DNA from: a virus
Lineage: Duplodnaviria > Caudoviricetes
Direction: 5' to 3' (one strand)
Length of the DNA: 64,000 nt
Virus record (IMG/VR): IMGVR_UViG_3300033121_001553
Location: 64,001-128,000 of that record
Position numbers and translations under genes: made by a program. This document shows positions 1 through 49,289 of the stretch, piece by piece (within the stretch, counting starts at the first letter, position 1; every line of letters begins with the position of its first letter). Below the pieces are notes generated by a model. That model saw only the letters and a program-made list of their open reading frames with translations. It did not search any database and was not told where the DNA came from.

Positions 1-2274
1 CGGAAACGCACCACGCTGTTCTGCAAGCAGAGTTGTCATGTTCGCGCAACCGAGCGCAGCCGTCTTGTAAAGACTCTCAACAAAGTCAACTGACTCCTTT
101 CCGTAGCTGTATCCCATCATCGCGATAGCATCACCTACACCAGTGAGGCCGCAACCGCAACGTCGTCCATTGATATTTGCTTCAAGAATCTTGTACCATA
201 GTTCAATCTCTCTTTCAAGATCGGCTACTTTGATACTTCTGTCGCTCTCATTCTCAATCTTTGAGATAATTTTACGTATTGCTTCAATTTCAAGATCGAT
301 GATATCGTCCAAAAAGCGCAACATCATACCGCATTCTTCGTAAAAACTATCGTAGTCAAACGTAGCATTTGGAAGAAAGGGATTAAGGACAAATTTTGAA
401 GCATTTACGACGCATAGTCTGCACGCGTCGTACGATGAAAGTGGGATTTCACCGCAATTCTTTACGCAGATACCAGAACATGTTACGTATTTTTCATCTT
501 GTGTCGATGTTATAACATGATAGTTGTGATTATCATCAACAGTAATGTTATATACATCTGCGTATCCACAGTGTTTAACAGATACAACTTTGTGATTATC
601 TGATACTTGATTTGCGAAATTTTCCCATGTTCCAAATCTAAAATCATTTGAAAGATGCTGTGGAAGTTCTTTTTCTTTTGCGTACTCGATCCAATCTTTT
701 TTGGTAATCTTACCGTTTTTCTTAAAAAGCTTTTTGCCATGCTCAAGCAGTTGTTCATTTGTAAATCCACTGTATCTACCATTTTTATCACCAAGATGTA
801 CAGCAAATTTTGTTTTCCATTCTTGGCTCATTTTGTGATAAGGATTTTTGCTACCTAGCATATTTTCTGTATGCAATTTTCTATGCTCTTCATGTGTCAT
901 TACACAAAGATTATCGTAAGCATCATTTGTAGAGCAACAATCGCTGTGATGAATTGCATAAGCAGCTGAGTCTACGACTTCACCGCTATAAAATTCGTGG
1001 ATAAGTCTATATTGACGTCTATTTCTACGATGTCCATTCGTCATTTTTTGACCAGACATCGCAATTTGTCTATACCCATTATTCATAAACGAATAAAAAG
1101 GAAAAATAGAATCGCCTTCTTTTAGATCTTTCAATTCTACATAACGCAAATCACGTAGCAAAATTTTATGATCAGGCGTTGCAGTAAATTTTGTTCCATC
1201 ATCAAGTTCAAGACACCAAATTTCTGCATTACGTTTTGTTAGACGTGGATTTCTACCAAATTTTATTTCAACTTTACCAGTTGCTGTATTAGTTGAATAA
1301 ACAGGCACATCGCGTCCTTCGTCAGCAAGCTGTTTTATTGTTACAGCATTACGTCCATCTGCTACAGCAATAAGTGTATCACCGGTTATGCACGGATTTG
1401 TGCTAATTGTGCGATAACCATGATCAGCGTATAGATCAGCCGGACTATTCTTTATGATAGTATCCCAGAATAGAACACCAGGTTCTGCGCTTTGATGCGC
1501 CGCATCTATGATCGCATCCCACACTTCTCTTGCACGAACAAAATTCTTGATCTTTGGGTTAGCGCTGTCAACTGGCCAACGCTGCTCGTACAGCTCGTCA
1601 GCAACAACAGCTTTCATAAACTCATCTGTGCAGCGTATCGAAACATTAGCGCCTGTGACCTTCTCACGATTACGCTTAATGTTGATGAACGTCATTATCT
1701 CTGGATGATGACACGAAATCGTTATCATCAATGCGCCGCGTCGACCGTCTTGACCGACTTCTCTGCACGTATTTGAATAACGTTCCATGAATACGCCAAT
1801 GCCAGCTGTCGTACGAGCTGCATTCGACGTAAACATTCCTTGCGGTCTGATATTCGAGATATCAACACCAACGCCACCACGACGTTTCATGATCTGAGCA
1901 AGATGTTCATCTGCTCTCATGATACCGCCGTAAGTGTCAGACGGAGAGTCAACAACAAAACAGTTCGAAAGCGACTGAATTTGATATTTGTTACCAATAG
2001 CAGACAGCGGACTTCCCTGCGGAACAATGATCCACTTTGAAATACGATCGTAGATATTTTCGTAGCTAACAGGCTCAGGATATTTCTTTTCAATACGAGC
2101 GATCTCTCTCGCAACGCGTGCAAACATATCTGCTGGAGTTTTTTCAACGAACTCGCCATTTTCATTCTTAAGAGCATACTTTTTGACGAAATTGTCAGTT
2201 GCAAATTCATCACCATTAAAATACTCAAGCGAAGCTGCGTATACTTCTTCTTTTGTGTATGTTTGCTTACTCAT
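1..2274 (-). CDS. nrdJ: Class II (adenosylcobalamin-dependent) ribonucleotide reductase, intein-containing, 3' end outside window
   Basis: Missing from the ORF track because it runs off the edge. Manual translation from ATG 2274 gives MSKQTYTKEEVY...PQGSPL...SLSNCFV...KRRGGVG...QDGRRGALM...KVTGANVS...SAEPGVLFWD...STNP[intein]CGEIPLSSYDACRL...GRRCGCGLTG...EQRGAFP, open to base 1. Confidence 0.93.
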   Translation of the reverse strand, partial: MSKQTYTKEEVYAASLEYFNGDEFATDNFVKKYALKNENGEFVEKTPADMFARVAREIARIEKKYPEPVSYENIYDRISKWIIVPQGSPLSAIGNKYQIQSLSNCFVVDSPSDTYGGIMRADEHLAQIMKRRGGVGVDISNIRPQGMFTSNAARTTAGIGVFMERYSNTCREVGQDGRRGALMITISCHHPEIMTFINIKRNREKVTGANVSIRCTDEFMKAVVADELYEQRWPVDSANPKIKNFVRAREVWDAIIDAAHQSAEPGVLFWDTIIKNSPADLYADHGYRTISTNPCITGDTLIAVADGRNAVTIKQLADEGRDVPVYSTNTATGKVEIKFGRNPRLTKRNAEIWCLELDDGTKFTATPDHKILLRDLRYVELKDLKEGDSIFPFYSFMNNGYRQIAMSGQKMTNGHRRNRRQYRLIHEFYSGEVVDSAAYAIHHSDCCSTNDAYDNLCVMTHEEHRKLHTENMLGSKNPYHKMSQEWKTKFAVHLGDKNGRYSGFTNEQLLEHGKKLFKKNGKITKKDWIEYAKEKELPQHLSNDFRFGTWENFANQVSDNHKVVSVKHCGYADVYNITVDDNHNYHVITSTQDEKYVTCSGICVKNCGEIPLSSYDACRLCVVNASKFVLNPFLPNATFDYDSFYEECGMMLRFLDDIIDLEIEAIRKIISKIENESDRSIKVADLEREIELWYKILEANINGRRCGCGLTGVGDAIAMMGYSYGKESVDFVESLYKTAALGCANMTTLLAEQRGAFP
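457..1392 (-). mobile_element. Intein (312 aa) with HNH-type homing endonuclease, inserted at the RNR catalytic NP|CGE site
   Basis: Starts CITGDTLI (block A), has block B FTATPDHKILL and block F VYNITVDDNHNY, and ends GICVKN before extein Cys. The central YRLIHEF...IHHSDCCSTNDAYDNLCVMTHEEHRKLH is HNH-like. Confidence 0.93.
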
Positions 2275-7314: not shown

Positions 7315-7341
7315 GCATTTTCCTTTCTTCTAAATTAGCTT

Positions 7342-8142
7342 TAAGCTATTTCCACCAAGCTCTGCTAGAGCAGCATCAAGATCAGAAACTGTCTTCTGCT
7401 TCTCAGCCGGTGCACGTGCAGTCACAGCAAGATCAGCGACAACCTTATCAAGGCTATCAACTTGGGAACCTGCACGCTCGGTTGTCTCCTCTGACGGAGA
7501 CATCCAACGCTCAAGCAGTTCCTTGAGCTCTTCGTACGTTGGATACGTAACAATATCGGACGTTTGCGGCATATTTTCAAGCCACTTCTTTTCTTTTGCT
7601 TGATCTTTCGTAAGAACAGAAGGCTTACGTGCTGCATCGACAACAACATCAAGCGTCTGCTTACCTTGCCACACTCTGCCTGAAGGCTTCAGTGTGACAG
7701 TCAAGTCATACCCTTCCTTCTGATGAGTGAAGTCACCGATTTCTTCATTCGTGAAGAATGAAAGCAAGCGATCATAAACGTTCCTATTGAACGACCACAA
7801 CATCCAACCGGCGTCTTCATTCGCTCGATCAATGATCAAAGCGTATGTTGTCATCTTCGGATAGAGTTGCTTGCACAGTTCTCTATCTTCTGGTCTACCT
7901 GTCTTTTGAAGCTTCACGATAAAGTCATGAATTGGATCAGGCTTGCCAAGCTGGTGGAGCGTTGCCTTTCTACGCTCTTTACCAATATAGTAATAATGAA
8001 CCTCACGAAATGGAAGCCCATTTTCAAACCACGGAAGCACACGAACTTTGTATTCACCCTGCTCTGGTTTCCAGAGCGGAACACTAGAGCGATTATTCAA
8101 CGAGTTGATCTTCTTCTTAACTGCTTCGAGATCTAGCGGCAT
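7342..8142 (-). CDS. gp32-like single-stranded DNA-binding protein
   Basis: LWKP..GEYKVRVLP, GKPDPI, GDFTHQKEGYDLTV, acidic C-tail DLDAALAEL, next to recA. Ends TTA 7342-7344 (standard code: TAG 7330). Confidence 0.8.
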
Positions 8143-8305: not shown

Positions 8306-8341
8306 ATTACAATGTTTCCCAAGTGGTTACAACTTTTTTAA

Positions 8342-9517
8342 TTATTCGATAACGCTAACTTTCAACGGAAAATTGAACTTGTAGCCAGGAATTTTTACGC
8401 CATTTGTTGCCATTGCTGTCAACGGTTCAATGTCATCGTTAGAAGCATCAATAATGATCGCATCGTGTATGATCGCAATTGGGGCTGAATTTTTTGCTGA
8501 TGATAGCAGCTCGATGTAACCGTATAGAGCGGCATCTGCTGCTGTACTTTGAGCGTAGTAGCTAGCGCACAATGCTGCACTTGCGTTGTCTTCTGACTCA
8601 AATTTGCAAACACGACCGAACTTATTCTTTATCGTGCTATCATCTTTCATGTCAGAGTAATCGTCGATCTTGAATATCGACTTTGTTTTTGCAACTATAT
8701 TCGCTGCTGTATTTTTTTGCATTCCAGCAAGAATAGCGACTGTTTCTACAGATGCACCGTAAACAATCGGATTGAATATAGCTTTCGCTACATCGCGCGA
8801 AAGATCAACACCGAGCATTTTTACGAACTGCGTGTATATGTCAGACTGAGGTACGATATCTGCTTCTTGAGCAAGAACTCGCGGCTCTATCGAGCTGTAG
8901 TCTACGTACAATAGCTTATCACGCTTTGGCACCAGAATATGTCTGACTTCTTTTGGAAGCGTCATATATCTTGGGCCTGAAACAATCTTTGTCCTACCAG
9001 TAGATGTCTCTGTTCTATTGTACTTCGGCACTTCAAGAAGACAGCTTTTGTCTCTCGGCAAAAATGTCTTGAGCACGTTTGCGTTAGAGTCATTCAACGC
9101 TGCTCTCATACGCTGAATGTTTACTTTGCCCGGCTCTAGCATATCGAAGATGCTATTTGAGTCAGAATAAAATCCGTTGTAGTACTTTATTGCACCATCA
9201 TGAATAACGTCTACGCATTGCAAGAAAAAATGCTGAAGTACTTCTATGTACTTTGCTTTTGGCAAAGCCATGCTGGGTATGAATTTTGTATCGAAGAACG
9301 CGTACGGCTTTTTGTATTTTGCGTCAATTACGATCTCTGGAACAGAGAGACCTGAGACTTGCGCAAGACTTCGTACGCATCCAGAATTAAAATTCTTACT
9401 AGAGATAATCCAGTCGTACTTGAGATCTTCTTGATAAATCTTAATTCTAGCAGACTGATCATCGTAAAGTACACTCTTGTCTTCATTAATGAATTCTTCC
9501 TTTGCGAGGATCAACAA
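8342..9517 (-). CDS. Short family-A DNA polymerase-like protein (polymerase domain only)
   Basis: TSTGR, motif A YVDYSSIEPRVLA, motif B RDVAKAIFNPIVYG, motif C IIHDAIIID. TTG start. Confidence 0.8.
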   Translation of the reverse strand: MLILAKEEFINEDKSVLYDDQSARIKIYQEDLKYDWIISSKNFNSGCVRSLAQVSGLSVPEIVIDAKYKKPYAFFDTKFIPSMALPKAKYIEVLQHFFLQCVDVIHDGAIKYYNGFYSDSNSIFDMLEPGKVNIQRMRAALNDSNANVLKTFLPRDKSCLLEVPKYNRTETSTGRTKIVSGPRYMTLPKEVRHILVPKRDKLLYVDYSSIEPRVLAQEADIVPQSDIYTQFVKMLGVDLSRDVAKAIFNPIVYGASVETVAILAGMQKNTAANIVAKTKSIFKIDDYSDMKDDSTIKNKFGRVCKFESEDNASAALCASYYAQSTAADAALYGYIELLSSAKNSAPIAIIHDAIIIDASNDDIEPLTAMATNGVKIPGYKFNFPLKVSVIE

Positions 9518-15856: not shown

Positions 15857-15874
15857 CGTGTTAGATAATAATCA

Positions 15875-18800
15875 TCAGTCGGGCAACGAACCTTCATTCT
15901 TCAGATCTGTTGCTGGGAATCCTTCTTTCGTTTCGTACGCTGCATTCACTAGGTGCTGACGTATCACGGAAGACTTACGCTTGATGATCACGTTTTCGAC
16001 CTTACCAGCTTCCATCGTAACGTTCAAATTGACGTTTATAACAACGTCTTTGTTCTGTATCTGGTAGTTGAACTTACCACCGAGCCCAACACCTTTTGCG
16101 ACGGCTTCAAGCTTCGCTGGAACATTGATCGTGTTGAGCTTTCCATCAGCTAGAGTATCATTAAGCTCATTTACTCGCTTAATCATATCAGAAACTGCAG
16201 AAAGCGAACGTTCAATACCACCAGACTTTATCGCATTACCAATCTTCGTCAGTTTCTCAGACGCAGAGATGATGTCAGCTGCGAATGAATCACTAAGAGT
16301 GAACGAAATTATCTTGATGTTATCAGACATCATTGCAAATGAGCTTGTATCAACTTGAGTCATTTGCACCGTTGCTACTTCTCCCATCGCAGATGCGAGA
16401 TTACGCATTGAAAGCAACGCATCTGATACGCTGGTAGAAATTTGCTTGACTGTCTGAACTGTGCTTTCAAGCGTACCAACAACACCGCTTGACTGCGAGA
16501 ATAGCTCGAATACGTTCATCTTTGACGTAAGCGTGCTAATGAATCCTTCAATAGACGATGAGATACCCATCAAAACATCACCTATGCTAGTGAATGCTGT
16601 ATCTGCATTGTCTACGTTCTTTGGAACGCTCTTTGTCGCAGAGCTCATCGAAGAAATAAATCCACCGAACGATGTAATGGCTTTCGAGATAGCATCGATT
16701 TTTGAGATATCTTTGCTCGTAAGCTGTTCTGCACCAGCGATAAGCGAATTTATGATCCCGCCAGTCATCGCCGGTAGCAGCTCTTTCATACCTTCAAGAT
16801 ACGTTGATATAAACTTACCAGCCGCACCGATCGCATTAGGATCGATGCCTGCTGCAAGCGCGCCGCCGCCAACAGAAGACTTCAGCGTTTCAAGCATCTT
16901 ATCAGATGGCATGATAGACTTCAAAACATTAGCGAAGCTTGACATGATAGAACCCATGCGTTCCATCTTCGTCAAGTTTTCGTCTGTGATCTTTGCAAAT
17001 TCAGGCGAGTTCATACGTCCGATGATCAAGTCGATAACTGTGCCGATCTTTTGTATCATCGAGCCAGCGAAGTACCCAACTTCTTCAAGCGTGTTTATTC
17101 CAGCAAGTTTTGGAAGAACTGACTTTGCGCCATCGATGATTTCACCGCTTGGCGTCAAAGCTTTCATTATCTCCGACGTTGCACGAAGTGAACTTGTCAA
17201 AAAGTTCATCGACTTCTCAAGCTCAGCAGTTACATTGAGCTCTGACGCTTTCTTTACAATCGTGTCTATCGTAAACTGCAGCGCAGATATTGTAGTACCA
17301 ACGAATGTGCCGATCTCGCTCAACGTATCAGTGAAGCTAGGTCCTATGAGACCGTATAGTTGACCCAAACCAGGCTTCGCAAGCTCGATGACAGATACCA
17401 TCGAAGATGAAAACTTACTAAATGTGTCTACAACATCAACGAAAATTTTAACTTTTGGACCTATTACGGATGGCTCCGGAAGCTGTTCTATCTTTGTAAG
17501 AAGATTTTTAACTTGCTCTACCATCTGCTCGCTAAATGCAGACACTGCTTTTATGCCAACGACTATTGATACAAAAGTGAACGGATTCATCGTTAGCAGA
17601 CCGACACCAGACATTGCGATAATAGAAAGTCCCAGTGCACCAAGCGTTACAGCTAGACTGCGCATCAACGATGTACCACGCTCTATTTTACTAATTTCGT
17701 CATCTTTCATGTCTTTGAAGACAGCGCCAATCATCGTAATCCCAATGGCGAATACTCCAATCGTTGCTGCAATACCAGCGAGTGCTCCACCAATCACGCC
17801 AGCGATCGCCGCTCCACCGACACCAGACTGAACAGCAACAGCTATGATACCGCCTATCACACCAACGACTGCCGTCATTGGCACCATTGCAAGAGCAAGC
17901 TTAGCCATGATGCCAACTCCCTTAGAAAGTGTATCAGGGCTTACGCCCATCGCATCTATCGCTTTCATCGCAACGCCAATGATAAACATATTTGTGCTAA
18001 ACGTCAACGTGATACCCGCGATAGTGAGCAATGCAGTACCGATATCTTTCGCTGAGGTGTCTTTCATACGTTTAGCAAGTTCATTAAGCGCTGCCATACC
18101 AACGATCATACCGCCAAGCGTTATCATCGTTTTCGTAAGACTACTGAAAGATACATCTTTCAAAATATCTGCAGCTTCTTTTACACGCTTTGCTAGTGGT
18201 ACAAGCCCGATGTATATCACTATGCCGACAGCAGCAAGTTTCATTGCCATCGTTGCTGCTTCTGCAGCGCCGAACTTTACCTTGCTCATAGCACTTTGGG
18301 CCTTTGCAGTTTGTTGAACTGCTGTAGCTGCAGCTGGCAAATCCTTTGCTTGCTCAGCAAGATCTTTTGCAGTTGATCCTGCATTTGCCGCTGCTGTTGC
18401 AGCCGACCCAGCTTTTTTAGCAACTGCCTCTTGTTTTTTTGTCGCAATCAAATTAACAATACCGGTCGCAAATGCACCAGCGCCTGCAGCAAATACAGAC
18501 TGCATAACAGCCGGACCAAACATTGCCAAGCTAAGGTAGATCATTGCTTTTTTGATCTTTGACTGCACGCTTGGCTTATTGAAATAATCGCCTATTTTAT
18601 CTGTTATGATGTCAAACAAACTCGTAAATGCATCCCAGAGTCCACGCCAAGCATCACTCTTTATAAGCTTGATGATCGGATCAAGTATCTGCATCAAGAT
18701 ACCTTGCGCACCAGACGTATCAAGTGAAAAATCACCTGTCTTAATGAAGTCTATAAGTTTACGAATACCTTCAGTAAGTGTACGTGCGCCCCACTCAAGA

Positions 18801-20758
18801 CCAGAAGCAAAAACTTTCATAAAGCTGATTGCTATCGTCTTTCCAGACTCAAGCAGTTTATTAACTGCTGGTGACTTGTCGGAGAAGACCTTCTGGAAGA
18901 CAGCGTACAAACCGCCGTTTTGATCTCCGATGAGATCTTTAAGGTTTAGCGTAACAAAAAATTTCTTGAATACATCTCTCACGTCACCGAGCATCTGCTG
19001 AAATTTCTTTTTATCGAAAATTTCTATGAAAGACTTCAGCGCTGTCTTTACTGCTCCGCCACCGAAAGTATCGACGAATATGCGTCCAACCTCACGTCCC
19101 ATAAGAAACGTCTGATTTAGAGTTGTACGAATCGATATCATTAGCTCTCTAAATTCTTTAGTGCTCTTGATACCAGCAATGAAACCCTGGAAAAACCTGT
19201 CTACGAATCCACCACTTCCAAGCATCTGACCGTCTTTTACGAGACGCTCGATCTGATCAGCAACGCGCTTCAATGCTTCACCAGTAGAGATCTGCTGCGC
19301 AGCGCTCTTAGCTGCTTCTTTCTTTACATCATCGTAAGACTTCGACAAGCCGTCTTGACTAAATGCGAGTCGCAATGAAGCATCGTCCATCTTCAACGTG
19401 TCTGCTAGCGCTTTTCTTTGAAACTTATTCATTGACTCGTAGCTATAGCCAGCTTCTGCTATTGACTTTTGAATCATGCTGAACTGCGCTGCAGGATCTT
19501 CTTCCATCATCAACGAATACGCGTCTACTGACGCGCCGAATGCTTGCGCGAGCTTCGATGCTGCTTCTGCACCGCCCTCGATCGAATCGAACTGATCAAG
19601 CGTACTCTTCAGCTGTTCGGCTGACAGACCAAGTCGTTGCATTTGCGCTGCAGCTGATGCGATTGTTTTTGTATCAAGGTAGTTTGGCCCAAACTGCTTC
19701 TGGATCACTGCCATCTCGCGTGAGACCATCTTCGCCGACAGCCCCCAACCCTTGTTTGCATCAGTCATTCCGCGCGAAACTTTAGCCCAGTCAGCCTGCA
19801 TCTTCACGAGTGTTGTACCGCTTGACTTAGCGTGCACAGCCATGAGCTTCATCTCTTCGGCAGAGTGCCCAAGCGCTTTTCCGAAGCCAAGCACGTAGCC
19901 AGACGTATCACGAAATTCATTCTGTATTACGTTAAAAACAGCACCGAACTTATCAGCTACCTCACGTATGTAGTTCAACTGTTCGGCCATATCGCCGAAC
20001 ACTTGCATAACGCCAAGACCAGAGTCTTTAAAGGTGTTATTTAGCGTTTTGAAACCAGTTATGACAGCTGACGCAGGGCCCTGCTGAAAGCTGCCAAACA
20101 CCTTTCGCACTTCTTCGTAAGCGCGTGCAAGCTCGTTCCCGCCACCACCCTCCTCTGCGAGAGAGATAAGACCTTCAAGCATCTTGAATGGTATCGAAAT
20201 TATCGCTTTACCAATATTGAATATACTTTCGACAAATCCACCAACTGCGCCAAGTCCAACACGTAGAATTGCAGATGTATTCTTTATGCCCTCATAAAGA
20301 CCTTTTGCTCCACCAGTTGCAGCTGCGGCTCCAATTGCCATATCGCCATATTCATCGTTCAACTGCTTCAAAACATCGATCTTTCGAAGCATGCTGCGTG
20401 AAAGAATATTGAAGATCGCATGTTGCTCTTTAGAACGTCCCGTTGAACGCACTTGCGCTGCCGATAGAAGATCTGAAGCTGATGTCGCTTTCTCGCTTGC
20501 CTCAGCTAGAGCTTCATTCGCTGCTTGTGTATCATTTATGCCAATGCGTGCATCGCGCATTGCAGATGTAAGAGACTTAGCGCTTGCTGCGACATTATCC
20601 AAGCCTGCACCAGACTTTGCGTAAGCGTTCATCGTTTCACGCATCGCGTCAAGCAAGTCTCTCTGAGAACTTATTGAATTTGCAATCTGCTCTTGCAAAC
20701 GAAGTTGATTCTCAAGCAGAGCATTTATCTGTTTTGTTATCTCAAGATTATCTGCCAT
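15875..20758 (-). CDS. Tape measure protein
   Basis: 1627 aa, Ala/Gly-rich and helical with hydrophobic segments. Lies downstream of tail tube and chaperone genes. Confidence 0.85.
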   Translation of the reverse strand: MADNLEITKQINALLENQLRLQEQIANSISSQRDLLDAMRETMNAYAKSGAGLDNVAASAKSLTSAMRDARIGINDTQAANEALAEASEKATSASDLLSAAQVRSTGRSKEQHAIFNILSRSMLRKIDVLKQLNDEYGDMAIGAAAATGGAKGLYEGIKNTSAILRVGLGAVGGFVESIFNIGKAIISIPFKMLEGLISLAEEGGGGNELARAYEEVRKVFGSFQQGPASAVITGFKTLNNTFKDSGLGVMQVFGDMAEQLNYIREVADKFGAVFNVIQNEFRDTSGYVLGFGKALGHSAEEMKLMAVHAKSSGTTLVKMQADWAKVSRGMTDANKGWGLSAKMVSREMAVIQKQFGPNYLDTKTIASAAAQMQRLGLSAEQLKSTLDQFDSIEGGAEAASKLAQAFGASVDAYSLMMEEDPAAQFSMIQKSIAEAGYSYESMNKFQRKALADTLKMDDASLRLAFSQDGLSKSYDDVKKEAAKSAAQQISTGEALKRVADQIERLVKDGQMLGSGGFVDRFFQGFIAGIKSTKEFRELMISIRTTLNQTFLMGREVGRIFVDTFGGGAVKTALKSFIEIFDKKKFQQMLGDVRDVFKKFFVTLNLKDLIGDQNGGLYAVFQKVFSDKSPAVNKLLESGKTIAISFMKVFASGLEWGARTLTEGIRKLIDFIKTGDFSLDTSGAQGILMQILDPIIKLIKSDAWRGLWDAFTSLFDIITDKIGDYFNKPSVQSKIKKAMIYLSLAMFGPAVMQSVFAAGAGAFATGIVNLIATKKQEAVAKKAGSAATAAANAGSTAKDLAEQAKDLPAAATAVQQTAKAQSAMSKVKFGAAEAATMAMKLAAVGIVIYIGLVPLAKRVKEAADILKDVSFSSLTKTMITLGGMIVGMAALNELAKRMKDTSAKDIGTALLTIAGITLTFSTNMFIIGVAMKAIDAMGVSPDTLSKGVGIMAKLALAMVPMTAVVGVIGGIIAVAVQSGVGGAAIAGVIGGALAGIAATIGVFAIGITMIGAVFKDMKDDEISKIERGTSLMRSLAVTLGALGLSIIAMSGVGLLTMNPFTFVSIVVGIKAVSAFSEQMVEQVKNLLTKIEQLPEPSVIGPKVKIFVDVVDTFSKFSSSMVSVIELAKPGLGQLYGLIGPSFTDTLSEIGTFVGTTISALQFTIDTIVKKASELNVTAELEKSMNFLTSSLRATSEIMKALTPSGEIIDGAKSVLPKLAGINTLEEVGYFAGSMIQKIGTVIDLIIGRMNSPEFAKITDENLTKMERMGSIMSSFANVLKSIMPSDKMLETLKSSVGGGALAAGIDPNAIGAAGKFISTYLEGMKELLPAMTGGIINSLIAGAEQLTSKDISKIDAISKAITSFGGFISSMSSATKSVPKNVDNADTAFTSIGDVLMGISSSIEGFISTLTSKMNVFELFSQSSGVVGTLESTVQTVKQISTSVSDALLSMRNLASAMGEVATVQMTQVDTSSFAMMSDNIKIISFTLSDSFAADIISASEKLTKIGNAIKSGGIERSLSAVSDMIKRVNELNDTLADGKLNTINVPAKLEAVAKGVGLGGKFNYQIQNKDVVINVNLNVTMEAGKVENVIIKRKSSVIRQHLVNAAYETKEGFPATDLKNEGSLPD

Positions 20759-20786: not shown

Positions 20787-20835
20787 AAAAAAAACTTCTT
20801 CGCCCGGTAACGGTTTTTATTGACCGTCCGGGCGA
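20787..20835 (-). terminator. GC-rich hairpin plus U tract upstream of the tape measure
   Basis: tcgcccgg/ccgggcga outer stem and acggt/accgt inner stem, then agaag and T8 on the minus strand. Confidence 0.6.
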
Positions 20836-20876
20836 GATTTTTGAAAATTTCGTTCTGCAGCTCACCGCATAAGTAA

Positions 20877-21147
20877 CTAGGTGAATCTGCGTGTTCTCGT
20901 TGGCGCGTGAGGATTTGTCATTCCCTGAAGTGCTCTTACGTCTGGACTATTCTGATGTGCTGCACGTGTTCTTGCGCCGCCATCATCACCATTTTTATTT
21001 ATCTCTTTGTTGATTCTTTCAATCCACCATTGCTTCATAACAATTGGCATATTGTAACCTTCGATGTACGAGAACCCACCGTAGTACATGAGATTGAAGA
21101 TGGGCTCCCATATAAGGCTAGCTTTATTTTCTGGCTGATGGCCAAAG
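20877..21147 (-). CDS. Tail assembly chaperone second ORF (gpT-like), probably reached by +1 frameshift
   Basis: Frame is open upstream of ATG 21089 as TFFGHQPENKASLIWEPIFNLMYYGGF, overlapping the end of the upstream gene. Confidence 0.65.
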
Positions 21148-21981
21148 AAAGTTTATTCCGATTGGAATGCTAACCTCCTGATCGGCTCCACACTTCGAGC
21201 ACGTACAGTTCTGTTTTGTGTCTACGCCAGGTTCGTTCGAGTCAATAAACTCGCGCAATGCCAAACTATCTCGTGCAGGCATGTTTTTTATGAAGCTGAC
21301 TGTGTGATGACCAGCCTGCACACCAGCTATTGATGTTACGCATGATACAAGCTTTGTTGTAACGTTGCTATCGATGCGTGATCCAAGCTTTTTTGCTGCT
21401 TCTTGCGTCTTCGTAATATTGTCTTCATCGTAGCCAGTCAGAAACTTGAACATTACATCTCTTTTCGTAACCGGTAGAGTAAATTTAAACTCGTTTACTC
21501 CTTGTGTTACTGGCTCGATCATGAGACGCTTCAGACCGAGCTGCGCTAGATCAAATACATATTCGAATTTTTCTGAGCATTCGTTGCATGTGATCTCAGC
21601 TGAATAGTCGGCGCCGTAGCCAGTAATTCGCACTGCGAACATGAGCGCAGTTTTATCACCAGAGAGCATGCTATTCACGTCTATTCGCTTGTCAACAAGA
21701 CAACTCTTAATGAGCTCGTTAATGACAGTGCCCTTCTTCAGCAACGCTCTGCTCGTAAGAATGTCTTCTTCTCTTGTCGTCATAGGCCTAATGTCGACAG
21801 TCTCGCACATGTGTAGAGCATTATCAGGTGAATAGATAACGCCTCTGCTTGGAATCGGTACGGTCTCTTGCGGTATGTCCAAACCAAGCTCAGCGAGCAG
21901 TTCATCGTTTGACTTCGTTTTTACGTTATTTGCTTGAGCGCTTTGTAGAACAGCTGGATTTATTCTATCTGATGACATCAT
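21124..21981 (-). CDS. Tail assembly chaperone / T4 gp26-like baseplate hub assembly protein
   Basis: PIPSRG, IRPMTTREEDIL, CxxC pairs (CNEC, CSKC), C-terminal FLWP. Lies between tail tube and tape measure. Confidence 0.75.
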   Translation of the reverse strand: MMSSDRINPAVLQSAQANNVKTKSNDELLAELGLDIPQETVPIPSRGVIYSPDNALHMCETVDIRPMTTREEDILTSRALLKKGTVINELIKSCLVDKRIDVNSMLSGDKTALMFAVRITGYGADYSAEITCNECSEKFEYVFDLAQLGLKRLMIEPVTQGVNEFKFTLPVTKRDVMFKFLTGYDEDNITKTQEAAKKLGSRIDSNVTTKLVSCVTSIAGVQAGHHTVSFIKNMPARDSLALREFIDSNEPGVDTKQNCTCSKCGADQEVSIPIGINFLWPSARK

Positions 21982-34923: not shown

Positions 34924-36813
34924 TAAGATGATGTTCATATTCAGAACCGTTACAGTTCCGAAGTAGTCAGAACGGATCATCTTCTTGCCGTACCGCGTCA
35001 TCACGCCCTTGGTTGGGGTGAAGTCCTGCGGATTGTAGATTGTCTGCGTCATGATGAGTGGCACATATGGCGCGTAGACATATCCCGTCTCAAGATAGTT
35101 ACCGCCCTTGTAGCCAACAAGGATGCGGTTCCTTGGGAAATAAGGATCCTTATAGACGGTAAATCTATTGTTCAGTGTACCGATTGCCTCTGCGCCCATC
35201 TGGAATGGAGAAGCTACCTGACCGTTGCCGTCAATCGACAGCTTGGCCTTGTACGCGATTGCGCTCTCGATAATCGTGCAAACATCTGGCGATGTCACGA
35301 TAAAGTTTGCGCTACCACGCAGGGTCTTACGGTGGATGGTGTTCGCAACGTCGTTGATTGTCTCAACAAGCGTCTGCGCCCACTCCATCGTGTTGCCCGT
35401 GAACTGTGGTCCGATCGACAAGCTCGTTGAGAGATCTCTCTGAGCACCGGTCAGCTTGTTCACGAACACGCCTGGAGCACGGCTCCAGTACAGGTTTGCA
35501 CCATTTGCCTGCGTTAGCAGATCCTGGAGGATCTCGCGGTCAATCTCAAGTGCGATCTGCTCCGACAGTACCTGCGTCAGCTCGACCTCTGCGTCGATGT
35601 TGTGGTACGCGTTCAGATCCTGCGCGAGCTCTGGAGACCAGCGAGCGCGCAGCTTGCGTGATGTTGCAGTGATTGCAATCGACTCAACCTTGATGTTGAC
35701 CTCTGCGATCACTGGGCTTGATGACGAGCCAAAGTCAGACTCGTAGCTTGGCAGCGTCAGAGTCGAACCTGTCGATGAATCGACCTGGAGCTTGTCGCTT
35801 ACGACACCAGACATCTTCATCGAGCCGCCGAGCACAGGTACTGAGCCTGCATTCGAGAGTCTCACGACGAACTGGATGTGGTCACCATTCAGCGCGTCTG
35901 GCGTAAACGTGGTGCCGTTGAAGTTACCACGCTTGTTCAGCTTGCGCAGGTTAAGCACACCAGTACCTGCCTGGAAGCTCTCGCCCCATGCCGTTGCACC
36001 GTTTGCCGTCGAGAACGCTGTGATTGCGAGCTGATCAACCTGGAGCAAGTCGACGTTTGCAATCGCGCTTGTGATCTGCGCAGTTGGAACGTGCACGAAG
36101 CACACGTCAAACGTACCAGCCTCGATACCAGCCTCAACGTCTGGATCGAAGTTGCAGAAGCGAGCGTTCGAGCCAGAGAAGTCAGTCGATGATGCGACTG
36201 TACCAGCTGATGTCCATGCGCCGTTCACTCCCGTGAATGCACCGACCTTCGTCTCAGCCGAAGCCGAAACAGAGTTGCTACCGCTGTGAACCTTCGAGAA
36301 GCCTGAGCCAACGAGGTCGTACATACCACCAGCCGCAAGCGAGCCCGACTGAACTCCCTTACCTGGCGGGTTGTTGTACAGCGACTGTCCAACGGTGTAA
36401 GTCTCATTTGCTGATGATGATGACAAGCTCACGCCTGCATCGCCACCAACGTTTGAGCCGTAGCCATAGTCGATGTAGAACACAAGACCAGATGGCAGCG
36501 ACATTGGCTGAACCGAAACGAGCTCGTTGGCAACGAGGCCACCGAAAACTCTACGTACGATTGGGAACGCAATGTTCGCGAAACCTGCGATCTGACCCGA
36601 CGTTGTAACGTTACCGCCACCTGTCGAGAGCGCGTTTGCCTCCTTTATGAGGCCTACTGCCTGGTTCTCAAGCAGACGGGCCATATGGCTACGGCGCTGT
36701 CCCTCGAGACCCTTGAGCAAGCCCGTCTTCGTCCACTTCTTGACGATGCGTGCTTCCTCTGCACTTCTATTGGGATCCTGGATCCCTTCCATAATATCCT
36801 GATATGTCAACAT
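34924..36813 (-). CDS. Major capsid protein (gp23-like)
   Basis: MARLLENQ, FPIVRRVF, VSVQPMSLPSGLVFY, RKLRARWSPELAQDLNAYH, GYVYAPYVPL, GVMTRYG. Own ATG 36813 with GGAGA SD. Ends TTA 34924-34926 (standard code: TAA 34912). The ORF track fuses it to the scaffold. Confidence 0.95.
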
Positions 36814-36843
36814 TTTTACTTTCCAATCTCCTAAGTTGTGAGC

Positions 36844-38295
36844 TAACTTGATACCAGCCAAAATGCTCCAGCGATCTAGCTCAGCAGACTCTGACAGAGT
36901 CTCCTTCGATGCTGTTGCTGCTCCGCTTTTCACCGTGCGTGATGACGACCCGAGCAGCTGACCGCCGCTCTTGCCTTCTGTCATCGGCTTCTTGTCAGAC
37001 ATTGCCGTTGAAACTGCTGTCTCGTAAACGAGGCGTAGCTCCTTCAACGAGCTTGCTTCATTGACACGCTTGCACGCTGATGCTTTCTGTGCCTTGGTCA
37101 GATTGTCATTCGTGACGATCTTATTCGCGACCTTTGTCTTGGCTAGCATGAGATTCGTCTCACGCAGTTGATTGTAAAGTTGACGTACTTTACGCTCTGC
37201 GACGATAGAGGTATTAAGCTCTCTCATACGGCGTCGCGCCGGTGATGCTGACTCACGCATACGAAGCGCTCTGCGGAAGCGCGACTCGCGTGTTAGCATC
37301 TCGTCATCTTCTTCGGCCTCTTCAGCCATTGGCTCTTCGCCCTCAAGACCCTCAGTCGTAACGTCAGCGTCAAGCCATGGATCACCCATGTCTTCTCCAC
37401 CGCCGAAGTCATCAACTGGCATCTTCTTTGACTCTGCAATTCTTGCACGTACTCTCATAATCTCACGACGAAGCATACGCTCATCAACCTCAACGATTGG
37501 ATCAGCGTCTTTTCTGCCTCTGCTTTCGCCCTGCTGCGTTGGCTTCTTCTCTTCTTCGCCAGCAGCTGCACCGCCAAGAATCGAGTCTAGTTCTGCGTCT
37601 GATGTATCATCACCAGAGCCGTCGGAAGGAGCAGCAGCATCAACATCAGCCTGTTCCTCGTCGCCCTCAGGTGCGCCACCTTCTTCATCTGCAACAATTG
37701 ATACACCGAGCGCTCCAAGATCAAGATCATCTGGCAGCGCCTCGCCGCTAAGCTCGAGTGTAACTTTACCTTCCGACATACGCTTCTTCATTTTTATTTC
37801 CTCTGATGTTTCCTTATTCTTGATCTTTGAGAATGCATCTTCCAGCGCCTCTATTAGAGGCTTTTTCTCCGCTTCACTTGAAGAACTCTCTTTTACGCTT
37901 CTATACATATCGTCGAGACGAGCGACTGCACGCTCACTCATACGAAAAATTGCGCCTACACGCTTTATTTTTGCTGTACGCTTTACGAACTCATCAACAT
38001 TTTCGCAAAGCGACGTAACTTCTGCCTTAAGCTTGTTGAATGATTCATTCTTTGAATCATCATCCGTTAGCACATTTTCTTCGTCTTTATCATCTTCAGT
38101 TGACTCGACGAATTCTTTTTCCATATCATCGCCGCACTCAGTGACGTCAGCTTCATCCGACTCCAACAGAGTCTTTTCAATGAAACTACGTATAGCTGGC
38201 AACGCCGACTCTACGATCTCTTTCTTAGCGCTGTCTTCTGCAAGCTCACGCAATTTTTGCACGTCTGCAAGCGCTTCTTTATAAAGATTCGACAT
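36844..38295 (-). CDS. Prohead scaffold/core protein (gp22-like)
   Basis: Acidic coiled-coil directly upstream of the capsid gene with many L/I-x-E sites. Ends LDRWSILAGIK then TTA 36844-36846, with no standard stop. Confidence 0.8.
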
Positions 38296-41198: not shown

Positions 41199-43295
41199 TC
41201 ACTCGTCTGTAGCATCAACGTTTACGTCTTCAGACAGAAGAACATTTTCAGCGCTTGCATCAGCTGTTTCTATCTGCCAGTTATGACGCTCACAAAACTT
41301 TTGTAGCATCTTATACATATCGCTTCCAAACGCAGGCTTGTAATATCCCTCTGCAAGTGGTTTCTTATCAACACCTGCAGTCGAAAGACTATTGAGCCAT
41401 TTGATATCCGATGGATCATCTTCTGTTGCTGTTTTAACAGTTGGCGTTGGAGTTGTTATCTTTTTCTTGTACCGACGTCTTCTTATTGCATTTCCGCGCC
41501 ATTTTCTTTCAGCTTTTGACTGTGCTTCTGAGAATCTTCTTATTTTGCTTGACGCAGATATCGGTCTATCGAGTTCCTTAAGCTGAAATTGTGGTGGTGC
41601 GAAGTCATCAGCGTCAGTGAGTATATTTTCTTCGTCTTCATCATCTTCAACGCTTGCATTAACTTCTCCGCCTGGTTCTCCACCTGCGGGTGGCGCTCCA
41701 CCGCCACCCTCACCGCCAGCTGGTGGAGCGCCACCGCCAAGATCTCCGCCGCCAAGCCCACCTAGCTCTTCACCGCCACCGCCTCCCGTAGGATTCGTAA
41801 AGTCGAATCCACCACCGCCACCTCCGCCGCCGCCGCCCATACCGCCGTCAGCTGTTTCAAGTCCAACGCCGATTTTTTCAAGTTCTGCATCTCGTGCACG
41901 ATCTTTCTTTCTACCCTCTTCTATGGCTGCTATCTGATCTTCTGTTAGCGAAAGTATATTTGTTCTTACAAAGTCACGATCAAGCATGCCTTCTGGTGGG
42001 CTACCAGCTATCTCAAACTTTGCGCGCCATAGCTCAAGCTTCTGCTGCTCAGCAACTGTTGATGGATTCGACAAACGAAGAGCAAAGTTGATCAGATCTT
42101 CGCCAGAAAATCCATGCACGAATAGATGCATAATCGCAAGCTTGTTGAGCTCTGATAGTATCGTCTTCTGTATAACGTTTATTGTACGAGCAAATCTAAT
42201 GTCGACTTGCGCAAGCGTTGACTTGCTTCCAAGTAGCTCTTCGTATCCCAAGTAAGCGCTTGGTACACCCAACGCTGTTACAAGTTTTCTTCTTATGTAT
42301 TGAACGTCTTCGACGGCAGCGACATTTTGACCACCAGCAAGCGTGTCTATCTTCGTTGCAGACGTCGAACCTCTAACGGGCATGATGTAGTCTTCTTCTA
42401 CGCTCATAGCTCCATAACGCAAGTCGACTCTACCAGTCGCTCTATCAACGACAGATGCCGTACGAAAATTGTTCTTTACGCTTTCAATGTGTGCTGGTAT
42501 AGCTTCGTTTGGCATATTACCAACGTCGATGTAGATCACACGACGCTCGGGCGCTCGTACGATACGATAGACAAGCATCGCGTCTTCGATCAGTATGAGC
42601 TGTCTCCACACTCTTCTTGCTCCGTCTAGAACTGATGAACCGTACGGCAAGTAGTTATCATTTCCGAGCAGACGCATGTGAACAATCTCCCAGTTTTCTA
42701 GCACACGTGCACCAAGCGTATTCCATCTGAACCTGACGGCTGCTGGATCTGCTGGATCGAAATTTTCTTCGCGATCGATTTCATTAACTGGTATCGGTAT
42801 CAGGCCTTGCACACCGTACTCTGGTGATACGTCTACATACGCAAACCAGTCACCGTTCTTGCACAAGTTACGTGCCCAAGGCCTCATGTTGAACTCAACG
42901 TTCAATACGTTGTAAAAAAGATCTTCCAAGATCTCTTGTATCTTCGGATTATCGCTATAGATGTGAAATGATCGTCCTTTATCGTCCTGAGCGCATGACT
43001 CATCTGCGTACAAGTTAAGCGCTGTAGCGATCTCAGGCATCTGCTCCATCTCGATAAAGTCTTGGAATCTCATCAGTCGTTCTGATGAGTTGAACGAGTT
43101 GGCTGTTAGCGCAGTGTATGTTGGTGATATTGTTTTTGAAAACAACTGTGCTGCAGATGAATACACAGAATTGCCAGACGCTACAACCGTGTCTTGTGAC
43201 TTTACTTTTCTTCTTACGACAGGCCCGCTCTTAAAAAGACGTGTGAGTTTTTTGAAGAAACTGTCGTACTGATTATCCTGTGTTGCCATCAGCAT
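41199..43295 (-). CDS. Portal protein (gp20-like) with Gly-rich C-terminal extension
   Basis: PEIATALNLYADE, LIEDAMLVYRIVRAPERRVIYIDVGN, EEDYIMPVRG, IDTLAGG, ALGVP. Confidence 0.94.
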   Translation of the reverse strand: MLMATQDNQYDSFFKKLTRLFKSGPVVRRKVKSQDTVVASGNSVYSSAAQLFSKTISPTYTALTANSFNSSERLMRFQDFIEMEQMPEIATALNLYADESCAQDDKGRSFHIYSDNPKIQEILEDLFYNVLNVEFNMRPWARNLCKNGDWFAYVDVSPEYGVQGLIPIPVNEIDREENFDPADPAAVRFRWNTLGARVLENWEIVHMRLLGNDNYLPYGSSVLDGARRVWRQLILIEDAMLVYRIVRAPERRVIYIDVGNMPNEAIPAHIESVKNNFRTASVVDRATGRVDLRYGAMSVEEDYIMPVRGSTSATKIDTLAGGQNVAAVEDVQYIRRKLVTALGVPSAYLGYEELLGSKSTLAQVDIRFARTINVIQKTILSELNKLAIMHLFVHGFSGEDLINFALRLSNPSTVAEQQKLELWRAKFEIAGSPPEGMLDRDFVRTNILSLTEDQIAAIEEGRKKDRARDAELEKIGVGLETADGGMGGGGGGGGGGFDFTNPTGGGGGEELGGLGGGDLGGGAPPAGGEGGGGAPPAGGEPGGEVNASVEDDEDEENILTDADDFAPPQFQLKELDRPISASSKIRRFSEAQSKAERKWRGNAIRRRRYKKKITTPTPTVKTATEDDPSDIKWLNSLSTAGVDKKPLAEGYYKPAFGSDMYKMLQKFCERHNWQIETADASAENVLLSEDVNVDATDE
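41680..41850 (-). repeat. Low-complexity Gly-rich repeat in the portal tail
   Basis: Poly-Gly run plus two tandem GGAPPAGGE units. Confidence 0.8.
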
Positions 43296-45864: not shown

Positions 45865-46123
45865 CGTTCATTTTACAACGATAACATACGCTGTACTCTT
45901 CGTATGTATCATAGTCTTCCCTACTAAGCATAATTTTTTTACAGCTTGGGCAATCAAGTGGTACTTCGCATGTGTTCTTAAGATCATCAATAACACAGTG
46001 AATACCCTTGTATTTCGTTACTAGCTTACCATCGTAACGATTTTTCCACGTTGCGTTTCTCAGACAACGCTTTGTTTCATTTATCATCTCATGAAAATTG
46101 AACGTAGGAGTTGTTTTGTTCAT
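45836..46123 (-). CDS. Small Zn-finger protein
   Basis: CPSC...CYRC. Start uncertain. Confidence 0.6.
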   Translation of the reverse strand: MNKTTPTFNFHEMINETKRCLRNATWKNRYDGKLVTKYKGIHCVIDDLKNTCEVPLDCPSCKKIMLSREDYDTYEEYSVCYRCKMNGGASFGDTY

Positions 46124-49100
46124 CTTTAACCACCTCTATCTGCTGATCTGCAATATCTTTGATCGCATCAACATGACTTATTACGAGAATAAATCTAAAG
46201 CTGTTTCTCAGCGAAGACAGCAAACTACATATTGACGGTAGCTGAATCTCGTCTAGTGTACCGAAACCTTCGTCTATGATGAAAAAGTCTGGTTTCGGTA
46301 GCACAGAAACTTTATGCAACGCTACTCTTATCGCTATCGATGCTATCGTTTTTTCCATGCCACTGCATAGTTCGATAATGCGTTTTGAGTCATTGTAGTT
46401 GATGAACACTTCAAGACTCGTTGAAGCTTCGTCTTCAAACTCAAGCTCGATCGTAAAGTCAACGTTACCTGCAAGAATTCCAGCAATTTGTCGATTGATG
46501 TAATGCAGCTTCGAACGCATCAAATACGCAGGCAAACCCTTTTTCGAGAATGCTTGCATCAGAAATTCAACAGCTCCGATACGCTTTGAAACATCAAGCT
46601 CAGATATAAGTTTGTCGTTGCTATCTCTTAGCGTATTCTCATCTTTAGCTTTACGCTGTATGATTTGAACAAGTCGCTTTTGAAGCAATTCAACTTTGCT
46701 TTTTTCTGCTTCAAGCTCATTTTTTAGCTTTAGTGCCGCTTCATCATCTTTGCTATGCTCATCATCGACGCTCAGCACTGCTAGTTGCTTTGTAATTTCA
46801 ACTATCTTCTCATTTAGAGAATCGATCTTTGATGCATGTCTTACAACATTTTCTGCGCTCTTCGATAGCTGCACATTTGCTGATGCTATACCTCTTGTAA
46901 GCTCATCTCTTTTCTTGATTTTTTTCGATATTTCTGACTCTTTTTCATCTGAGCACATTGCGGCTGTCGTTTCTATGACAGTCTGCAATTTTTCTATTTT
47001 TGCTGCAAGCTCTGTTAGCTGCATCGAATCTTCAGCAGCGTCCTTTATGTACATGCAGCTTGGGAACGTTCCGCCGCAAGGAACATCTGATAGCTTCAAA
47101 GCATTTTTTTTCTTTGATGAATACGATGCTTCAGTAACACGCTTCTCTGACTTCAAATTCGCCAGTTCATTAGAAAAAATCTTTAGCTGCTTTAGTTCGT
47201 CTGTAAGGGTATCAATGTTGTGCTTATCAACAACACTCTGAGCAACTTCTATTTTTTTCTTTAGTTCATCGCGTACTGCAGTTTCAGCCGTAAGCTGTTC
47301 TTGCACTTCTGCCAGTTGACGCTTTGCTGTTTCAAGTTGCGCTGTTAGACGTTTTCTTTCTAGTATTGTCTGAGCTGTATTCGATACGCCTGCGTATGCT
47401 ATGCTTAGTCGTAGAACATCATCCTCAGCAGATTTCTTTTGCGATTCGCATTCTTCGATTTCTCTGTTAGCGTCGTTTAGTCTATGCTCAAGTGCTGTTA
47501 TTTGTTTCTTTAGCTCATCGATAGAAATACCACCCGACTTTGCTTTGAGCAGTTGTAGCTCTGACTTCATCGTTGCGTGATACGTTTCAAATATGTTGAG
47601 TCCTAGACAACGCGTTACTATCGCTTTGCGCGCTGCTGAACCTACATTTATGAAATTCAGCATGTCGCCTTGGGCTGACAACGCTGTTAGCGCAAAGTCT
47701 TCTCCTGTGCCGATGAACGTTCTAAGCGTACGATCTGTGTCAGATCTCTGCTCAGCAGAAAGTGATACAAGCTCATCGTTAACGTAGCTGTACAATTCAA
47801 GAGTCGTTGGAGCTCCAACAACACCTCGCTTTTGATTCTCAATCTTGCGTGTTTTTCTTTGAAGCGCGTAAACACCATTCGAGCATGTAACAATCGCGCT
47901 TGCACCGCATTCTTGCTTGTTGACGTTAATGTAGCTAATGTTCTTCAGAGAACCACGATCAGACGAGTTATATAGCGCGTACGTTATTGCACCAACGATA
48001 GACGACTTACCAATCCTGTTTCGTCCAAAAACGCCGACTATACCGTTTAGCTTGTTGAAGTCTATTTTGTTATCTCCGCCGTAACAAAACAAATTATCAA
48101 ATTCAAGCTTGTTTATCGTCCAATTTCCGGTGTTTATTTCAACGTTGTTAGTTTGATCAATACAATTTTTGAGTTCATGCGTAATAAGATCACGATCAAA
48201 TTTTGAGTACGACTTTTCATCGTAGTTTCGCAAAAGCTCATGTAGATCGTTAACAGATCTAATGTTTGTTTGCTTATCACCACCGTCAGAACTCAGTTCT
48301 ACTTTCTTGATCTCATCTTGAGATTCATCTTCTATCTTGAATGCAACTTCAAGTCCACCGTAACGTTTTAGCTGATTCGTAATCGTCTGAATTGCCGACT
48401 GTGTCGGTCGTGACGAGCAAAGAACTCTAAATCTAGACTTCGCGGGATACTTTTTGTAGTCTGACAGACCATTCACATCATCCCAATAGAGCGTAACAAA
48501 TGGATTGATAGTCGCAATTTCAACAAATTTCGCTGAAAAGTTTTTCTTTCCTACAATATCCCAGACGTAATATCCGTGCTCATTGATCGATTCACCATGA
48601 TTCTGCTGAATAAACGAGCCTGGATACGCTATCCGTGGTGTAACGACGCCATCTTGAATCGCTACATAGTCAAGACATTGACGCTTGTGAATGTCACCGA
48701 GAAGCGCAATATCGTAGTCATTAAAATAGTCTGTTGTAACATGCCCGTCAACAGCCCATCCAACGTCTGTCTTTGATCCATCAACTGGACCGTGATAGCA
48801 CCCTATCGTAAAACAGTTTGTTTGATCAAACGGCGCTTTATGAGTGTTCCAGCTATCTTGATCAAACAAACTGTAGATGTAAAGCCAAATACCATCGTGG
48901 CTTGCAAACTTATTATCGCCAGTCAGTTTATACCAACCAGACTTTTTGTAGAGACATATTCTAGGATTGTTCAGAGCCTCTACAATTGGTGATATCGCAT
49001 CCATACGTGTTAGATTCACGATATTACCATCGTGATTTCCGAGCATCATATGAACGGGCGCGACATCAGCCAGCTTCGTTAGCCATGTATTCATTACGCT

Positions 49101-49289
49101 AACGAATTCAGGACTTATTCCAGCTGTCTTAGTATGAAAGATATCTCCAGCAATAAAGATGTAATCTACAAGATGATCTTTTGCTGACTTGTAGAATTTT
49201 TCAAACGTTTCTAGGTACTCTTCATGACGAGAAAGTCCACGCCAATGAATATCAGCAAGATGCGCGATTCTAATATTTGATTTCATCAC
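46089..49289 (-). CDS. Fused Mre11/SbcD nuclease and Rad50/SbcC ATPase (gp47-gp46 fusion)
   Basis: N-terminal ADIH, AGDIFH, GNHD, GDIHK. Then Walker A GRNRIGKSS, Q-loop SAQG, coiled coil with CGGTFPSC hook, signature CSGMEK, IIDEGFGTLD, VISH. Confidence 0.92.
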   Translation of the reverse strand: MMKSNIRIAHLADIHWRGLSRHEEYLETFEKFYKSAKDHLVDYIFIAGDIFHTKTAGISPEFVSVMNTWLTKLADVAPVHMMLGNHDGNIVNLTRMDAISPIVEALNNPRICLYKKSGWYKLTGDNKFASHDGIWLYIYSLFDQDSWNTHKAPFDQTNCFTIGCYHGPVDGSKTDVGWAVDGHVTTDYFNDYDIALLGDIHKRQCLDYVAIQDGVVTPRIAYPGSFIQQNHGESINEHGYYVWDIVGKKNFSAKFVEIATINPFVTLYWDDVNGLSDYKKYPAKSRFRVLCSSRPTQSAIQTITNQLKRYGGLEVAFKIEDESQDEIKKVELSSDGGDKQTNIRSVNDLHELLRNYDEKSYSKFDRDLITHELKNCIDQTNNVEINTGNWTINKLEFDNLFCYGGDNKIDFNKLNGIVGVFGRNRIGKSSIVGAITYALYNSSDRGSLKNISYINVNKQECGASAIVTCSNGVYALQRKTRKIENQKRGVVGAPTTLELYSYVNDELVSLSAEQRSDTDRTLRTFIGTGEDFALTALSAQGDMLNFINVGSAARKAIVTRCLGLNIFETYHATMKSELQLLKAKSGGISIDELKKQITALEHRLNDANREIEECESQKKSAEDDVLRLSIAYAGVSNTAQTILERKRLTAQLETAKRQLAEVQEQLTAETAVRDELKKKIEVAQSVVDKHNIDTLTDELKQLKIFSNELANLKSEKRVTEASYSSKKKNALKLSDVPCGGTFPSCMYIKDAAEDSMQLTELAAKIEKLQTVIETTAAMCSDEKESEISKKIKKRDELTRGIASANVQLSKSAENVVRHASKIDSLNEKIVEITKQLAVLSVDDEHSKDDEAALKLKNELEAEKSKVELLQKRLVQIIQRKAKDENTLRDSNDKLISELDVSKRIGAVEFLMQAFSKKGLPAYLMRSKLHYINRQIAGILAGNVDFTIELEFEDEASTSLEVFINYNDSKRIIELCSGMEKTIASIAIRVALHKVSVLPKPDFFIIDEGFGTLDEIQLPSICSLLSSLRNSFRFILVISHVDAIKDIADQQIEVVKDEQNNSYVQFS

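Follow-up and report, generated by a model that had tools for sequence, protein, structure and literature searches.

Background

Changes of the genetic code that turn a sense codon into a stop codon are in print for mitochondria and plastids only (PMC12574857). In these organelles, the use of UUA alone as an added stop goes together with substitution of Ser204 in release factor RF2, and the use of both UUA and UUG goes together with a factor of the RF1 type (PMC12574857). For bacteriophages, possession of a suppressor tRNA with no visible reassignment of its codon has been put forward as a possible incipient stage of recoding (PMC7886860), and the Lak phages have been called "alternatively coded". 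Our literature search found no report of a sense-to-stop reassignment in a virus or a bacterium. Programmed frameshifts, which also bear on the locus described here, are familiar both from the tail-assembly chaperone genes G and GT upstream of the tape measure and from the +1 shift at CUU-UGA in prfB.

The window is the whole 64-kb stretch of DNA that was analysed; it belongs to a 186,819-bp contig, which we lengthened, by walking into near-identical assemblies (JGI and Logan; 99.3% nucleotide identity), by ~54 kb at its end and by 3.6 kb at its start. Two contigs of the phage, Ga0490007_000001 (171 kb) and Ga0490007_000039 (58 kb), are in JGI sample 3300045333. The ends of the sequence lengthened in this way (~58 kb added, ~244 kb in all) do not meet. 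The explanation that we prefer, at slightly better than even chances, is that the DNA is from a T4-like jumbo phage, as yet uncultured, that closes its genes with UGA, UUA or UAA and has nearly abandoned UAG, and that avoidance of UAG due to a tRNA(CUA) of its own would be combined with recognition of UUA by an RF2-type factor specified outside the ~244 kb. The genes of the window are closely packed and all on the minus strand, so that the codons tallied in a preliminary description of this DNA are minus-strand codons and were read correctly. Two of the window's genes have unusual architectures: a single ORF of 1066 aa (46089-49289, minus strand) joins a Metallophos domain (Mre11/SbcD-like) to AAA_23/SMC_N domains (Rad50/SbcC-like), which are on separate genes in T4, and the gene for the large subunit of ribonucleotide reductase (1-2274, minus strand) is split by an intein that carries an HNH domain. 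The features that matter most for the argument are listed in Table 1.

Table 1. Positions of stop codons, genes and signals discussed in the text (window coordinates unless marked as genome)
Feature	Position	Strand	Basis or remark
TAG stop, the sole gene end of this type in the window	20877..20879	-	direct reading; at conserved C-terminus ...RRFT, TAA in the L027 homolog
TTA adjoining the TAG (tandem stop)	20874..20876	-	direct reading; adjacency not enriched compared with other stop types
Hairpin followed by U8, terminator-like, between TAG-TTA and tape-measure start	20787..20837	-	RNA fold -23 kcal/mol, z=-4.55
+1-frame extension ORF, 91 codons, without a conserved start of its own	20880..21152	-	tblastn match to L027, 46% identity, E=1e-16
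Candidate +1 slip site AAC TTT CTT TGG (CUU to UUU re-pairing)	21142..21153	-	+1 frame opens just 5' of the site
gp26-like baseplate-hub gene, 285 aa, ends TAA, then AGC TAG	21124..21981	-	Pfam PF12322 T4_baseplate, E=1.2e-14
Tape-measure gene, 1627 aa, TGA TGA TTA TTA at its end (15877-15866)	15866..20758	-	ORF list, codons after the stop
Major capsid gene of the Gp23 type, 629 aa, predicted C-terminus ...LNMNII, with TTA (34926-34924) as its stop	34924..36813	-	Pfam Gp23; stop positions of orthologs
TTA ... TTA between scaffold and capsid genes	36832..36846	-	followed by Shine-Dalgarno-like AGGAG and ATG; 1127-aa "fusion" under table 11
DNA_pol_A-like gene, ends TAA TTA (8344-8339)	8339..9517	-	Pfam PF00476, E=1.2e-12
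Table-11 ORF with apparent TAG end (7332-7330)	7330..8142	-	TTA in the same frame four codons before it (7344-7342)
tRNA(CUA), amber-reading	genome 154237-154308

TTA as an additional stop codon

The triplet TTA is almost missing from the reading frames of this phage. It accounts for 22 of 21,099 in-frame codons in the window, the GC content of which is 43%, and for 111 of 59,933 in the genome, as compared with 298 occurrences of CTA and 333 of TTG in the window and with ~780 TTA triplets lying off-frame on the same strand. TTG, at 15.8 per 1000 codons of the window, is a common leucine codon. The few in-frame TTAs of the window fall within the last 1-28 codons of ORFs called with table 11, before the likely true start of a gene, between genes that table 11 fuses, or in doubtful ORFs, and those of the genome are likewise confined, nearly all of them, to the starts or ends of ORFs; none occupies a conserved in-frame position. 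TTA does occur where orthologs have their stops. In the alignment of the major capsid gene with those of 76 relatives, the first stop-like codon of the relatives stands exactly at the position of the phage's TTA, and is TAA in 37, TGA in 31, TAG in seven and TTA in one. The single relative with TTA at this site, L001, has the same genome-wide TTA pattern, and between its genes and their orthologs in the window phage TTA changes places with TAA and TGA, with alignments that stop at the ends of the ORFs. These two phages and L083 form a clade (support 0.998), and TTA is a sense codon in its sister group. About one third of all genes end in TTA, including those for the major capsid, scaffold and sheath proteins. 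Judged from these sequence comparisons, TTA does behave like a stop codon, and it is the only codon beyond the standard set to do so. One practical consequence is that gene callers run with table 11 will fuse or extend about one in three genes of this phage.

The base composition of the genome is not uniform: the most distant ~40 kb of the extension past the contig end (L167, L173 and L175) have a GC content of 53%, as against 43% in the contig, and the TTA rule still holds there.

The scarcity of TAG

The preliminary description had counted 22 gene ends with TGA, 15 with TTA, 10 with TAA and one with TAG in the window, and our recount, with TTA taken as a fourth stop, is close to identical (TGA 22, TTA 14, TAA 10 and one TAG, in a small ORF). 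Under table 11 there is one other ORF in the window with a TAG end (7330-8142), and we ruled out its TAG as a stop because a TTA precedes it in frame. On the whole contig the same procedure gives 207 ORFs, of which 96 end in TGA, 66 in TTA, 39 in TAA and six in TAG. The near absence of TAG noted at first for the window thus extends to the genome, where TAG makes up 2.9% of stops. This is far below the 16% that off-frame trinucleotides would predict (p=3e-9). It is also far below the 17.6% (90 of 511) found in standard-code relatives of 38-48% GC (p=3e-6) and the 12-26% found in each of four standard-code relatives that could be taken whole (157-273 kb). The depletion of TAG exceeds chance, and the clade member L001 has TAG at the end of none or one of 17 ORFs. 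Apart from two small ORFs and the putative frameshift product considered below, the genes of the genome that truly remain TAG-ended are those for UvdE and an HNH endonuclease.

The TAG-TTA pair and the +1-frame extension

The solitary TAG of the window is followed directly on the minus strand (20879..20874) by a TTA, and the preliminary description had seen in this arrangement a TAG stop that is "backed" by TTA, together with tandem stops after the tape-measure and DNA_pol_A-like genes, which are present as it described them (Table 1). The adjacency is real, but the idea that it reflects a rule had to be given up. Among 331 ORFs of the contig and its extensions, a second stop lies no more than 4 codons away in six of the 15 that end with TAG and in 107 of the 316 others (Fisher p=0.59), and ~40% of TTA stops likewise have another stop within 4 codons. 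The TTA behind the TAG is an ordinary chance tandem stop and, as TAG stops are backed no more tightly than others, strong pressure from read-through is unsupported.

The reading frame that this TAG closes is of some interest in its own right. From the ATG at 21089 to 20880 it encodes 70 aa, and the homolog in L027 is 46% identical across its full length; the two proteins share the C-terminus ...RRFT, and the fact that L027 has TAA at the site of the TAG marks the latter as a genuine gene end. Similarity to L027 and L081 (FFG..PE.K..L..EP.F.L.YY.G) does not begin at a start codon, however; it begins before any start codon is available, within the final codons of the gene before it, and overlap of the extension ORF with the end of the upstream gene is found in all three phages. 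The stretch of overlap contains a candidate slip site with the consensus TTT YTT TGG, common to the window and the IMG/VR loci L027 and L081, its equivalents being ACG TTT TTT TGG in L027 and AAC TTT TTT TGG in L081. What is seen here, just upstream of the tape measure, is a conserved overlapping ORF in an alternate frame that lacks a start of its own, and we infer that it is expressed by a programmed +1 frameshift; the conservation is visible in the alignments and the slip itself is putative. On the same comparative evidence, the TAG is the true end of what appears to be an extension of the gp26-like hub gene in the +1 frame. The hairpin between the TAG-TTA pair and the start of the tape-measure gene (Table 1) is not flagged by a simple terminator scan.

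The tRNA set and the avoidance of TAG

The contig carries the gene for tRNA(CUA) and 12 other tRNA genes, including one for Asp-GUC that was seen by Rfam only. The extensions add 22 more, an array of 20 directly past the contig end and two farther on (L150 5381-7568; L175 1944-2346), which brings the phage to at least 35 tRNAs covering 19 amino acids, with no tRNA-Cys seen among them. The anticodons of its leucine tRNAs are UAG, GAG and CAA. The lack of tRNA-Leu(UAA) that had been predicted for this system therefore holds for all of the phage's own tRNAs, at least 35 in number, and two standard-code relatives do have a tRNA-Leu(UAA). A low-threshold ARAGORN candidate with anticodon "tcaa", beside tRNA-Val, is an ordinary tRNA-Asp(GUC) according to Rfam and was set aside. 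The split boxes are served in two different ways: for Gln, Lys, Glu and Arg(AGR) the phage has U34 as well as C34 tRNAs, whereas the UUR, UAR and UGR boxes have C34 tRNAs only (Leu-CAA, CUA and Trp-CCA, respectively), so that no phage tRNA reads UUA, UAA or UGA. These three are exactly the codons that end 97% of the genes.

Several further observations were made on tRNAs and their processing. The three leucine tRNAs of the phage are 74-76 nt long, have A73 and, unusually for tRNA-Leu of the bacterial type, lack a long variable arm. Of the 25 tRNAs in G002 (the record behind L026), a relative in which TTA has its standard meaning, one is an opal reader with the anticodon UCA. An RNA_ligase gene (PF09414; genome 2067-3071, L160) lies near the contig start and may serve in tRNA repair. 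The closest paralog of tRNA(CUA) in the phage has at most 67% identity to it and is uninformative.

The preliminary description had tentatively ascribed the rarity of TAG to an altered release factor. The depletion itself is borne out, but the phage's own amber tRNA(CUA) offers a simpler cause and is the most likely one. In infected cells this tRNA would compete with termination, and UAG, which could then be trusted neither to end a chain nor to specify an amino acid, would be avoided. There is no in-frame TAG in any conserved gene, nor any direct sign that tRNA(CUA) decodes phage genes, and so UAG looks avoided in both roles; the table-11 ORFs are contiguous (96.6% coding), and reading TAG as sense would only lengthen the ends of the few ORFs that have it as their stop. 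None of the four standard-code relatives examined whole has a tRNA(CUA). Adjoining tRNA(CUA) is a Pth2-like gene with homologs in Lak phages, whose recoding we take to be that of TAG. Searches with the Pth2-like protein found no loci in IMG/VR and, in the protein database, only the protein itself.

TAG is the least-used stop in many bacteria and phages, and its rarity here could be ordinary stop-codon bias that has no connection with the termination machinery, with TTA as the only special codon. TAG stops are also missing from three of 36 relatives' loci with ~14 genes each, and the chance level of the TAG-TTA tandem agrees with such a bias. We nevertheless think this quite improbable: TAG is 5-6 fold below its level in relatives of the same GC content and below that in every one of the whole relatives, its rarity coincides with a phage-encoded tRNA(CUA), and it recurs in L001.

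The reading of UUA and the search for a release factor

The preliminary description had proposed that UUA, UAA and UGA are read by an RF2-like factor relaxed at codon position 2, and had called for a search for prfA and prfB homologs with a changed SPF/PxT motif. Within the phage sequence, such a search was negative. No bona fide RF-1 or PCRF domain was found with Pfam in the contig, phmmer --max with a bona fide RF2 had no match in the six-frame translation of the ~244 kb of phage sequence, and the RF-1 domain was not found in four large relatives. A PCRF signal in the C-terminal tail of the portal protein (window 41241-41333, minus strand; 18 bits, E=1.8e-4) follows a long Gly-rich linker, has neither a GGQ nor an SPF/PxT context, and is probably due to chance.

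To look beyond the phage we scanned databases with a DNA pattern for RF2 in which the serine of SPF is replaced ([Ala/Gly]-PFD..GRRHT), a pattern that misses Cys variants and divergent flanks. It gave two matches in 185,579 GTDB species genomes, both spurious and of high GC, none in IMG/VR, and 10 in JGI metagenomes, of which two are real RF2s with APF, neither of them linked to an avoidance of TTA. The only full-length one (L100 3641-4750; JAEEGK010063437.1) is on a contig of 46% GC that has TTA inside its genes, so the change from SPF to APF alone may not suffice to make UUA a stop.

What can be kept of the earlier proposal is its fit to the codons: as UUA alone has become a stop and TTG is a normal leucine codon, an RF2-type model is the best mechanistic analogy. 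Against this, the lack of any release factor homolog in ~244 kb means that the central actor of the model is unobserved. By analogy with the organellar model of an RF2 with Ser204 replaced, UUA would be read by a factor of the RF2 type that is specific for A at position 3 and relaxed at position 2, and this factor might be a host factor, might be encoded in the remaining genome, or might be non-homologous to class-I release factors. RF2-type reading of UUA is thus plausible and unproven.

The same findings have to be weighed against two other accounts. In one of these the code is the host's own, that is, a host bacterium with an altered RF2, no tRNA-Leu(UAA) and a weak or absent RF1 terminates at UUA, and the phage mirrors it. 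The TTA stops are spread over both strands and all 20-kb bins and are present in small early-like ORFs as well, which implies that termination at UUA is needed from the start of infection, and the lack of a phage-encoded factor in ~244 kb points in the same direction. We regard this account as unlikely all the same, since the GTDB scan with the DNA pattern, described above, yielded nothing but spurious altered RF2s, sister phages with ~67% capsid identity use TTA as sense, members of the clade span 43-54% GC, and the near-complete tRNA set suggests a phage that reshapes the tRNA pool and does not rely on that of its host. In the other account UUA is merely unassigned, as no tRNA in the infected cell reads it, and chains are released slowly, either through a rescue pathway or by wild-type RF2, for which UUA would be near-cognate. 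No altered factor in ~244 kb, a phage tRNA set without a UUA reader and the second stops that lie so close to ~40% of TTA stops would all agree with this. Such release would have to be efficient, however, for a third of the genes end in TTA, capsid, scaffold and sheath among them, and TTA stops are kept between clade members at 68% identity. In addition, sense codons are strongly rejected by bacterial release factors, and proteins rescued by tmRNA would carry a tag that marks them for degradation. We consider an unassigned UUA very unlikely.

A more far-reaching version of our preferred explanation, RF2-type reading of UUA combined with avoidance of UAG, is that the phage imposes a code of its own on the infected cell. 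The UNG codons UUG, UAG and UGG would each be read by a C34 tRNA and the UNA codons, except UCA, by none, UUA, UAA and UGA would end genes through one RF2-like specificity, and translation of host mRNAs, which abound in UUA, would be cut short. We offer this tentatively and think it rather less probable than not. If true, the sense-to-stop change would at the same time shut off the host and act as a firewall against rival phages; a virus able to give a leucine codon the meaning of a stop within an ordinary host would have a new route of host takeover. A tRNA set that skips the U34 readers of UUR, UAR and UGR, an amber tRNA and the lack of a release factor in ~244 kb are in any event the first data on mechanism for a phage case.

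Comparison with known systems

The putative frameshift resembles that of the tail-assembly chaperones G and GT in that a start-less overlapping ORF lies directly before the tape measure and is conserved in distant phages. The usual chaperone shift is -1, whereas the candidate shift here is +1, and the upstream gene is gp26-like (T4_baseplate) and not a recognised chaperone of the G type. With respect to the prfB site, the CUU-UGG of the window permits the same re-pairing of CUU to UUU, but UGG and not a stop codon would occupy the A site.

The phages with amber recoding (code 15: Lak and crAss-like phages; PMC7886860; bioRxiv 10.1101/2021.08.26.457843) share with the window phage a phage-encoded tRNA(CUA) and little use of TAG as a stop, and the Lak phages among them share homologs of the Pth2-like gene. 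They differ in that the window phage has no in-frame TAG interrupting its conserved genes, and it matches more nearly the state in which a suppressor is present without apparent reassignment (PMC7886860). Their recoding is moreover from stop to sense, while the striking change in the window phage, that of UUA, is from sense to stop.

Close parallels also exist in the UUA-stop codes of organelles, namely those of labyrinthulean (Thraustochytrium) mitochondria (NCBI table 23) and peDinoflagellate plastids (PMC12574857). As in those codes, UUA and not UUG ends genes, UUA stands only where homologs have stops, no tRNA-Leu(UAA) is seen among the phage's tRNAs, at least 35 in number, and the restriction to A at position 3 would be the signature of an RF2-type factor. 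The organelle codes are defined by an altered RF2 in which Ser204 is replaced by Ala, Gly or Cys, and such a factor was not found in the ~244 kb of the phage. The system of the window is that of a bacteriophage and not of an organelle, and in it UCA stays a serine codon, UAG has been abandoned as well, and an amber tRNA is present.
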